Source: Escherichia coli (lineage in GTDB: Bacteria; Pseudomonadota; Gammaproteobacteria; Enterobacterales; Enterobacteriaceae). From it: a stretch of 4,312 nucleotides of DNA. Positions within the stretch are counted from its first letter, which is position 1, and the number at the start of each line of letters is the position of its first letter. Of the stretch, positions 327 to 4,312 are shown in pieces. The translations under genes and the position numbers were made by a program. The notes below the pieces were generated by a model. That model ran no database searches. It was not told the origin of the DNA and worked only from the letters and a program-made list of their open reading frames with translations. The stretch lies in the NCBI RefSeq assembly GCF_003334305.1, contig NZ_QOWS01000050.1. One strand, 5' to 3'.

Positions 327-402
327 TGGTGCTGATAGGCAGATTCGAACTGCCGACCTCACCCTTACCAAGGGTGCGCTCTACCAACTGAGCTATATCA
401 GC
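327..402 (-). tRNA. thrT: tRNA-Thr (anticodon GGU), 76 nt with encoded CCA
   Basis: Reverse complement gives GCTGATATAGCTCAGTTGGTAGAGCGCACCCTTGGTAAGGGTGAGGTCGGCAGTTCGAATCTGCCTATCAGCACCA: cloverleaf-compatible, anticodon loop CTTGGTAA, T-loop GTTCGAATC, 3' CCA. Confidence 0.95.
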
Positions 403-408
403 ACATCT

Positions 409-483
<75 letters not shown>

Positions 484-599
484 ATCCTGGAACTCGGCTA
501 CCTGATTTTCATTCTGCACTGAATATCGAGAGAAGCTCTCTTTATTCGAGCCGGTAAGCGAACTTATCGTCTCGGGCTACGCCATCGCGTGGCCGAAAT

Positions 600-684
<85 letters not shown>

Positions 685-692
685 GGACTTGA

Positions 693-768
<76 letters not shown>

Positions 769-3074: not shown

Positions 3075-4099
3075 GAAATTGTCTCCACTGCGCTCACTTC
3101 ACCTGATGCACCAATAAAGCGGACTTCAGGCTCAAGCCAGACATTAAATTTTTCACCCACTTTTTGTCTTACATGGTGTGCCAGTTGCACCACATCTTCG
3201 CTTTTTGCATTGTCTTCATTAATGAGAACTAACGCCTGTTGACGGTGCACCGCAGCCCCACCCATTTGCATCCCTTTTAGCTGGCACTGATCAATAAGCC
3301 AACCTGCTGCCAGTTTTACTGAACCACCCGCCTGGGGGTAATTTGGTGCTGTTGGAAATTGCGCCAGTAATGCTTTAGCCGTTTCGGCAGATACAACAGG
3401 GTTTTTGAAGAAACTACCGGCATTGCCATTCACTTTTGGATCAGGGAGTTTGGTGGTGCGCATATGACACACCGCATTAAATACTTGCTGTGGCGTTACT
3501 GTTGTAGGATCCAGACGAGTTAAGTCACCATACGTTAGTACAGGTTGCCACTCTTTTGGCAGACGCAGACCTACGGCTAAAATGGCGAAGCGATCCTGGT
3601 ATTCATGTTTAAAAATACTGTCGCGATAGCCAAAACGGCACTCTTTGGCAGTTAAGCGCACTTGCTTGCCTGTCGCCAGTTCAACACAATCAACATAAGC
3701 GCAAACTCGCTGTAATTCTACGCCATAAGCACCAATATTCTGGATAGGTGATGAGCCGACACAACCAGGAATTAATGCCAGATTTTCCAGACCAGGCATA
3801 CCTTCCTGCAAAGTGTATTTTACCAGGCGATGCCAGTTTTCTCCGGCTCCTACATGTAAATACCACGCATCAGGTTCATCATGAATTTCGATACCTTTGA
3901 TCCGGTTGATGATCACCGTGCCGCGATAGTCTTCCAGAAAAAGTACATTACTTCCTTCACCCAGAATAAGAACGGGTTGTCCTTCTGCGGTTGCATACTG
4001 CCAGGCATTGAGTAATTGTTGTTCGTCTTCGGCACATACAATGTGCTGAGCATTATGATCAATGCCAAATGTGTTCCAGGGTTTTAAGGAGTGGTTCAT
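3071..4099 (-). CDS. murB: UDP-N-acetylenolpyruvoylglucosamine reductase (MurB), 342 aa
   Basis: Minus-strand [57 protein letters not shown]... matches E. coli MurB (FAD-binding reductase of peptidoglycan precursor synthesis). Start ATG is the complement of 4097..4099; stop TGA is the complement of 3071..3073, overlapping the birA start. Confidence 0.93.
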
Positions 4100-4104
4100 A
4101 GCTG

Positions 4105-4111
4105 CTTTCCT
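4105..4111 (-). promoter_or_regulatory. Shine-Dalgarno sequence for murB (AGGAAAG, about 8 nt upstream of the ATG)
   Basis: Minus strand reads CATCAGGAAAGCAGCT-ATG. Confidence 0.55.
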
Positions 4112-4190
4112 GATGCAAAAACGAGGCTAGTTTACCGTATCTGTGGGGGGATGGCTTGTAGATATGACGACAGGAAGAGTTTGTAGAAAC

Positions 4191-4222
4191 GCAAAAAGGC
4201 CATCCGTCAGGATGGCCTTCTG
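4191..4222 (-). terminator. rrnB distal terminator T2 (stem AAGGCCATCC/GGATGGCCTT, loop TGAC, then T-tract on the minus strand)
   Basis: Minus strand reads AGAAGGCCATCCTGACGGATGGCCTTTTTGCG: a perfect 10-bp stem followed by TTTTT. I recognise it as the rrnB T2 terminator also carried on common expression vectors. It terminates transcripts arriving from beyond the right edge of the window. Confidence 0.75.
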
Positions 4223-4226
4223 CTTA

Positions 4227-4266
4227 ATTTGATGCCTGGCAGTTTATGGCGGGCGTCCTGCCCGCC
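4227..4266 (-). other. 5S rRNA 3'-end-like remnant in the rrnB T1-T2 spacer
   Basis: Minus strand reads GGCGGGCAGGACGCCCGCCATAAACTGCCAGGCATCAAAT; the last 18 nt (AACTGCCAGGCATCAAAT) equal the 3' end of E. coli 5S rRNA plus the first trailer bases, preceded by a 7-bp hairpin (GGCGGGC/GCCCGCC). It is not a full 5S gene; the authentic rrfB would lie beyond the right edge of the window. Confidence 0.6.
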
Positions 4267-4312
4267 ACCCTCCGGGCCGTTGCTTCGCAACGTTCAAATC
4301 CGCTCCCGGCGG

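Follow-up and report, generated by a model that had tools for sequence, protein, structure and literature searches.

Organization of the locus

The window, a stretch of 4,312 nt of Escherichia coli DNA, is the reverse complement of the rrnB-distal/murB/birA/coaA/tufB-operon DNA, and it aligns to the MG1655 genome (NC_000913.3 4171844-4176152) with 99.3% identity over 4309 nt. A preliminary description, made from the letters alone, had placed murB directly downstream of the terminator region of an rRNA operon; this is right, and the operon is rrnB. In the RefSeq annotation of MG1655, the gene order here is rrlB-rrfB, murB, birA, coaA (on the opposite strand) and thrU-tyrU-glyT-thrT-tufB. The four tRNAs occupy window positions 330-768, and birA lies downstream of murB with a 4-nt overlap. 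All the features at issue are encoded on the minus strand of the window (Table 1). The rrnB 5S gene and the first terminator, T1, lie outside the window, whose edge (position 4312) falls within the spacer between T1 and the second terminator, T2; therefore, the claim that this spacer carries a copy of the 5S end was checked against the MG1655 genome (locus L001).

Of 5426 complete E. coli genomes, 5413 carry a 413-nt query across the region with a coverage of at least 80%, at a median of three places per genome, because a 212-nt module is common to rrnB, rrnA and rrnD.

Table 1. Features of the rrnB-murB intergenic region, in window coordinates and listed in the direction of the minus strand. 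L001 is the corresponding locus of MG1655; TLR, tRNA-linked repeat.
Feature	Position	Strand	Basis
rrB TLR/RrB sRNA gene, 3' part (~89 nt), between rrnB T1 and T2, cut by the window edge	4224..4312	-	identical to MG1655 L001 845-933
TLR stem-loop AAATCCGC-CGGGA-GCGGATTT	4296..4312	-	L001 841-861, predicted RNA fold
TLR stem-loop CGTTGC-GAA-GCAACG	4278..4292	-	hairpin search, fold, tyrT comparison
TLR stem-loop TGGCGGGC-AGGAC-GCCCGCCA	4247..4267	-	hairpin search, fold
18-nt direct repeat AACTGCCAGGCATCAAAT, 3' end of TLR	4227..4244	-	exact copy of L001 745-762
rrnB T2 intrinsic terminator: 10-bp GC-rich stem, 4-nt loop, then UUUUUGCGUUUC	4190..4222	-	hairpin search, RNA fold
TTCTAC-N17-ATATCT, candidate promoter, not supported	4160..4188	-	2/6 and 1/6 consensus matches
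ACAAGCC, moderately conserved, at expected -35 position	4152..4158	-	leader alignment
-10 hexamer TAAACT, within invariant block ATACGGTAAACTA	4129..4134	-	conservation in 81 leaders
murB-birA transcription start (NC_000913.3 4172033)	4123	-	SMRT-Cappable-seq
Shine-Dalgarno AGGA, within conserved 5' UTR block TTTTGCATCAGGA.AGC	4108..4111	-	at least 90% column conservation
murB (UDP-N-acetylenolpyruvoylglucosamine reductase), 342 aa	3071..4099	-	ORF

Terminator T2 and its conservation upstream of murB

The arms of the T2 hairpin, AAGGCCATCC and GGATGGCCTT, lie at 4196-4205 and 4210-4219 and pair perfectly over 10 bp. The hairpin is followed on the minus strand by TTTTTGCGTTTC, with the U-run at 4195..4193 running on as GCGTTTC, so that T2 has what defines an intrinsic terminator, a GC-rich hairpin immediately before a U-run. 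In the fold predicted for the RNA from T1 to T2 (minimum free energy -110.9 kcal/mol, z = -9.4 against shuffles), the T2 hairpin is clear. A simple terminator scan of 3900-4312 called nothing and missed T2, in our reading because the A/U tracts on either side can lengthen the stem. From the U-run of T2 to the murB ATG we measured 93 nt, in agreement with the distance of about 90 nt, on the same strand, given in the preliminary description. Termination has been put at 87% for T1 and at about 100% for T2 (Orosz 1991, as cited in PMC8144298). Term-seq places a 3' end at 4171799/800, in the U-run of T1, and none is listed at T2.

We compared the distal ends of all seven rrn operons of MG1655. The 212-nt module composed of T1, spacer and T2 recurs in rrnA (99%) and in rrnD (94% versus rrnB), where it sits after the second 5S gene, rrfF; the module is thus not special to the junction of rrnB and murB. 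In rrnG, T2 comes straight after the 5S gene (CAAATTATGCGAAAGGCCATCCTGACGGATGGCCTTTTTGC), with neither T1 nor the repeat body in between. Because the arrangement of rrnG, rrnC and rrnH matches it, the repeat of rrnB together with T2 can be read as an ordinary 5S end followed by a terminator. Similarly, the trailer CAAATTAAGCAG that follows the 18-mer in the window is that of the rrnC and rrnH 5S genes, with 29 of 31 identities when the 5S end is counted in.

This terminator is retained well beyond E. coli. Among murB loci from 80 species of Enterobacteriaceae, 49 reach a 5S-end motif, and 19 were inspected in full; many contigs end 65-600 nt upstream of murB, as expected from the repeated rrn operon that adjoins. 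A stable hairpin and T-run stand right after the last 5S-end motif in 48 of the 49 loci, by a criterion that allows for RNAfold pairing of the U-run with the upstream A-tract. Most of the 19 loci, including one from an Escherichia genome (L011), have a 5S gene and one T2-like terminator before murB, with no tRNA-linked repeat. An intact repeat is found in some of them (L016, L031 and L038, from a Citrobacter, a Kluyvera and an Enterobacter), and a partial or truncated one in L030 and L069. By these comparisons, T2 appears to be orthologous to the lone terminator that directly follows the 5S gene in rrnG and at murB in most of the Enterobacteriaceae sampled. The gap between the terminator and murB ranges from about 60 to about 200 nt across genera and has taken up REP elements; in one locus (L014) it carries a transposase-like ORF fragment, and IS insertions are tolerated there.

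A weak and conserved promoter for murB-birA

The last ~60 nt before murB are conserved as a series of blocks: ACAAGCC(A/T)TCC, ATACGGTAAACTA, TTTTGCATCAGGA.AGC and the ATG. We aligned 81 leaders (80 distinct), in which ATACGGTAAACTA is at least 90% conserved in each column. The hexamer within this block reads TAAACT in 74 leaders, TAAAAT in 2, TACACT in 4 and TTAAAA in 1, so the pattern T-A-x-A-x-T is kept in 80 of the 81, the exception being L018. The distance from the hexamer to the ATG is 28-31 nt across the leaders and 29 nt here.

The position of the hexamer agrees with a mapped 5' end. The SMRT-Cappable-seq data of Yan et al. 2018 (PMC6131387, Supplementary Data 1) list a forward transcript covering 4172033-4174072, with 170 TSS reads and assigned to b3972|b3973 (murB, birA). 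In this one TSS data set, the capped start is 5 nt after TAAACT and gives a 5' UTR of 24 nt; the start expected from the hexamer is ~4172034, one base from that listed. TAAACT has the T at -12, the A at -11 and the T at -7 of a sigma70 -10 element, and it lies within the usual 5-8 nt before the start. Judged by consensus the promoter is weak: the -10 hexamer matches at 4 of 6 positions, the -35 hexamer at 3 of 6 at best (AAGCCA, at a 17-bp spacer, not conserved between genera), and the TG of an extended -10 is absent. The preliminary description had seen no strong sigma70 promoter between T2 and murB, and indeed none of consensus strength is present; its fallback proposal, a weak promoter for murB-birA, is what the capped start beside the conserved hexamer supports. 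A consensus scan of 3900-4312 called no sigma70-like site; since the terminator scan of the same stretch called nothing either, even at T2, scanning is uninformative here. No murB start is present among the entries listed in the supplements of the Cappable-seq (PMC4782308) and Kim 2012 (PMC3415461) studies, and a literature search on the murB promoter found no relevant paper. We conclude that murB-birA is transcribed from its own weak, conserved sigma70-type promoter, with a start 35-70 nt after T2.

Three other candidate signals were rejected. TTCTAC-N17-ATATCT, put forward earlier as a weak promoter, is in the wrong place with respect to the primary 5' end, matches the consensus at only 2 of 6 and 1 of 6 positions, lies in a part of the spacer that varies between genera and has no TSS listed. 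A BirA operator was suggested by GGTAAAC, which resembles the bioO half-site TGTAAACC; it was dropped by inspection because the inverted partner that bioO has at a spacing of 16 nt is missing. Finally, a sigma32-like CCCCAT box in CCATCCCCCCACAG was dropped because that stretch is not conserved between genera.

Possible read-through from rrnB into murB-birA

The most credible of the alternatives builds on the read-through raised in the preliminary description; in it, a physiologically relevant share of the murB-birA mRNA would come from rrnB transcripts escaping both T1 and T2, so that cell-wall and biotin-ligase expression would be tied to rRNA synthesis. The rrn operons are very heavily transcribed; on general knowledge, an escape of only ~0.1% could rival a weak promoter, and the murB promoter is weak by consensus. 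Moreover, Cappable-seq sees primary 5' ends only and is blind to processed read-through RNA. There is also an anecdote: one group deleted rrnB and was then unable to get rid of a CamR marker that had stayed behind between murI and murB (PMC4330394). Against this stand the termination reported for T2 (about 100%) and for T1 (87%), the capped start that murB has of its own (PMC6131387), and the strong terminator kept between the 5S gene and murB in all but one of the 49 loci. In addition, the spacer between T2 and the promoter accepts REP and IS insertions, and Term-seq gives the 3' end at T1 with no sign of abundant transcripts beyond it. Furthermore, although murB is an essential gene, strains with markerless deletions spanning rrnB are viable (Quan et al. 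2015, PMC4683628, which gives no deletion coordinates in its text). Taken together, these observations make appreciable rrn read-through into murB-birA unlikely, and the coupling as originally put forward, in which murB-birA would depend in part on it, we regard as very unlikely.

A more modest version could still be imagined, in which a small escape past T1 and T2 would add a component of murB-birA expression proportional to growth rate on top of a weak constitutive promoter; in a variant, the invariant ATACGG and ACAAGCC blocks around the -10 would bind some regulator. We consider this a long shot. If true, it would create a passive link between ribosome synthesis and the supply of cell wall and biotin ligase. 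Transcription of murB-birA from its own promoter is the reading that we prefer, with T2 probably insulating the two genes from rrn transcription. An independently promoted unit also fits the view of Brandis et al. 2019 (PMC6735719), who take rrnB and tufB to be the ancient operons and murB-birA-coaA to have been inserted between them later.

The T1-T2 spacer as a tRNA-linked repeat

In K-12, ten loci together hold 22 tRNA-linked repeats (TLRs) (Egan & Landy 1978; Rudd 1999; both as cited in PMC8144298). [quoted passage not shown] The spacer of our locus has these properties. In MG1655 the element spans L001 758-931, directly after rrfB (which ends at 757) and before T2, and its last 18 nt repeat the 3' end of the upstream gene exactly. 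Its body is related to the TLR unit of tyrT-tyrV, with a local alignment score of 40 versus 15.7 +/- 2.4 (maximum 28) for shuffled sequences; there are 29 matching columns among the 32 aligned, and 2 gaps, and blastn reports 84% over 32 nt. In both units, the core GAACGTTGC..GCAACGGCCCGrAGGGTG is succeeded by a GC hairpin and then by ATAA, and the copied 3' end of the preceding gene comes last.

The hairpins seen earlier in the spacer belong to this element. The GGCGGGC/GCCCGCC hairpin is present as described, with arms at 4247-4254 and 4260-4267, and CGTTGC-GAA-GCAACG, which is part of the core common to the tyrT repeats, is also real, its previous coordinates (4279-4293) being one base off. 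A further stem-loop is cut by the window end, which leaves its 3' arm, its loop and 4 nt of its 5' arm. The Rfam model of RtT RNA (RF00391) aligns to the window over model positions 43-130, the 5' end being cut by the window, with 19.2 bits (E = 0.14); this score, and the 17 bits obtained in L001, do not reach the gathering score of 45 bits. With the model score below threshold, it is by pairwise homology and by the literature that the T1-T2 spacer can be assigned to the published tRNA-linked repeat family, as rrB.

The properties of the RNA are known from the work of Stenum et al. 2021 (PMC8144298), whose Figure 1 shows the 18-bp sequence twice, 150 bp apart. The 173-nt RrB RNA starts 3 nt past the 5S end, at an RNase E site, and ends 3 nt past the repeat; a shorter form measures 113-115 nt. 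RrB binds Hfq and CsrA and has a half-life of 2.5 min, and a role for the repeated 5S end as an RNase E signal was proposed in the same study. From this literature, one would expect about 13% of rrnB transcripts to pass T1 into rrB and then to stop at T2. RNase E would probably cut at the repeated 5S end, reading it much like the genuine one; the 18-mer is thus the presumed RNase E signal, with a cut expected ~3 nt after GGCAT, near window position 4228. The products would be the short-lived 173-nt RNA and the 113-115-nt RrB, which binds Hfq and CsrA.

The preliminary description had noted an exact 18-nt copy of the 5S 3' end and trailer upstream of T2 and had seen in it the relic of a duplicated module of 5S gene and terminator. 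The copy was confirmed. AACTGCCAGGCATCAAAT consists of the last 13 nt of rrfB and 5 nt of its trailer, the original lying 150 bp upstream in MG1655; window positions 4227..4244 align to it exactly, and the alignment of the two repeats extends to 26 of 30 identities (score 40 versus 16.5 +/- 2.3, maximum 30, for shuffles). The 18-mer does therefore derive from a 5S 3' end, and the part of the proposal that takes the repeat and T2 for a 5S end with its terminator holds as well. The relic itself has to be revised, as the body of the spacer has no similarity to 5S and is homologous to the tyrT repeats.

Could the spacer nevertheless be a duplicated 5S gene, comparable to rrfF in rrnD, that has decayed to its last 13 nt? 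Between the T1 end and the repeated GGCAT lie ~120 nt, the length of a 5S gene, and two 5S genes do occur in rrnD. However, the 5S gene aligns to the spacer body with a score of 14, which is equalled by 363 of 500 shuffles (14.9 +/- 2.2), so that similarity to 5S does not extend beyond the repeat. The Rfam 5S model (RF00001) matches rrfB only (90.4 bits), the homologous tyrT repeats come after a tRNA and not after a 5S gene, and the module of rrnD comes after a second 5S gene that is intact. With no 5S similarity outside the 18 nt and no covariance-model match, a decayed 5S gene was rejected, and we hold this origin to be exceedingly improbable. Even less credible is a chance or low-complexity match of the 18-mer without common origin with 5S, for which only the shortness of the match speaks and which was rejected by the shuffle control (longest common word 7.4 nt on average and 12 nt at most in 1000 dinucleotide shuffles, versus 18 observed), given moreover that the repeat is conserved in rrnA, rrnB, rrnD and other genera and that such a repeat is a family-wide hallmark of TLRs.

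With the spacer read as a TLR, the comparison of rrn operons suggests that a unit of ~150 bp made up of T1 and the TLR body, with the 18-bp direct repeat on either side, was probably added to a basic arrangement of 5S end and terminator. This direction, a gain of the TLR and not a loss, is read from the distribution of the element, and gene conversion between rrn operons blurs it.

Discussion

We are confident that positions 4100-4312 of the window, on the minus strand, comprise the end of E. coli rrnB and the beginning of an independent murB-birA operon, with a short insulating gap in between. The locus is an ordinary one, as the dual terminators, the 18-bp repeat, the rrB TLR with its sRNA and the adjacency of rrnB and murB have all been published. 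For annotation, the apparent 5S relic is better described as marking the 3' boundary of the rrB TLR than as a pseudo-5S gene. The conserved TAAACT box, which lies 29 nt ahead of the ATG, is where the murB-birA promoter can be placed; this adds little to current knowledge, the start site being already in public data. It is also worth noting that neither this promoter nor the classic T2 is picked up by consensus-hexamer scanners or simple hairpin-plus-T scanners. It is an old question by what route TLRs acquired the 3' end of the gene before them, and the window makes it no more testable.

Among known systems, the closest is rrB/RrB itself (PMC8144298; Rudd 1999; Egan & Landy 1978), with the same sequence, the same position between T1 and T2, the same 18-bp copy of the 5S end and the same stem-loops; nothing differs. 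Its paralogues are rrA in rrnA and rrF in rrnD, and the window holds only the 3' ~89 nt of rrB. The 175-178-bp repeats of tyrT, from which the RtT RNA (RF00391) comes, are similar to rrB in that they follow a stable-RNA gene and in that each unit ends with the 3' end of that gene, and the core GAACGTTGC..GCAACGGCCCGrAGGGTG recurs in them along with the series of hairpins. They differ in the source of the terminal copy, which is 17-19 nt of tRNA-Tyr in the tyrT repeats and of 5S in rrB, and in their organization: the tyrT repeats form a tandem array, whereas rrB is a single unit whose 5' part is an intrinsic terminator, T1.

The T2 hairpin and spacer of the window also have a counterpart in biotechnology, as we take them to be part of the rrnB T1T2 cassette of pKK/pTrc/pBAD-type vectors, that of Brosius et al. 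1981 and Orosz et al. 1991. The DNA is the same, but here it is in its native place, with the murB promoter 35-70 nt downstream. The use of these terminators in vectors is mentioned by Stenum et al. 2021 (PMC8144298).

Two further comparisons place rrnB among related transcript ends. The rrn operons with a single terminator, namely rrnG and the murB-proximal rrn of most sampled Enterobacteriaceae, have a 5S end, a trailer of the form CAAAT(T/A)A.., a T2-like hairpin and TTTTTGC, as do the repeat and T2 of rrnB; they differ from rrnB in being without T1 and the TLR body. Finally, sRNAs of the 3'ETS-leuZ type resemble RrB in that RNase E frees them from the 3' external spacer of tRNA or rRNA transcripts (PMC8144298). 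What sets RrB apart is its position after a leaky terminator and its binding to CsrA besides Hfq.

Terminator-to-murB spacer

The rrnB operon of the GTDB species representative E. coli E69 (locus L011, 1020-1500) lacks both T1 and the tRNA-linked repeat (TLR) that lies between T1 and T2; instead, a T2-like hairpin (CAGATAAAGCGAAAGGCCATCCGCAAGGATGGCTTTTTT) is found directly 3' of the 5S gene and is followed by the usual murB leader. Thus, the TLR is polymorphic within the genus Escherichia. Separately, in Escherichia sp. MOD1-EC7003 (locus L014, 1-421), the T2-like terminator is separated from the conserved murB promoter block by a REP element and, 3' of it, by approximately 200 nt that, read by eye, resemble a transposase-like ORF fragment (MDEKQLQALANELAKNLKTPEDL...). 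The TAAACT block of that murB promoter is undamaged. In MG1655, the ends of rrnA and rrnG have in common a post-T2 sequence, TTTTTGCATTGGCGCAGAAAAAAATGCC(G/T)GATGCGACGCTG..GCGCGTCTTAT, which we read as a REP-type element. The homology of rrnB with these two operons ends at TTTTTGC, where the murB leader starts.

Detection of T2 and the murB promoter

The consensus promoter/terminator scan of window 3900-4312 did not call the murB promoter, which has been mapped by experiment, and it also missed rrnB T2, a classic terminator. In our reading, T2 was missed because its stem is able to take up bases of the A and U tracts, which leaves the 'tail' without Ts. The same stem/tail problem explains the low count in the RNAfold-based terminator test, in which 24 of the 49 murB loci reaching the 5S-end motif were scored under the first criterion versus 48 under the corrected one.

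murB transcript and leader

The 24-nt leader in the murB 5' UTR (window 4100-4128; TTTTGCATCAGGA.AGC) shows the same degree of conservation as the coding sequence, and its Shine-Dalgarno includes a GGA motif. Since the neighbouring RrB RNA binds CsrA, we could speculate, purely as a conjecture, that the murB 5' UTR carries a candidate CsrA site. Further downstream, the Term-seq supplementary tables (bioRxiv 10.1101/2020.07.18.207399) contain a reproducible RNA 3' end inside murB, at NC_000913.3 4172639. After deletion of rrnB, a CamR marker remained between murI and murB, and the authors were unable to remove it 'despite several tries' (PMC4330394); this could have a technical cause or could hint that murB gains from upstream transcription.

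Positions in the window of the RNA 3' end internal to murB and of the tRNA genes of the tufB operon
Feature	Window position	Strand	Remarks
Internal murB RNA 3' end	~3517		~582 nt into murB; Term-seq, bioRxiv 10.1101/2020.07.18.207399
thrU, tyrU, glyT, thrT (4 tRNA genes)	330-768	minus	Rfam, 53-75 bits

tRNA-Tyr ends and TLRs

The 118-nt tyrU-glyT spacer (within window 330-768, minus strand) contains no repeat of the tRNA-Tyr 3' end and is therefore not a TLR. At the tyrT-tyrV-rttR locus of MG1655, the 17-nt tRNA-Tyr 3' end TCCTTCCCCCACCACCA occurs six times within 900 bp, corresponding to two genes and four TLR ends, with one TLR unit of 175 bp and three of 178 bp. The TLRs of this locus are similar to rrB in that both obey the same rule, each ending in a copy of the upstream gene's end.
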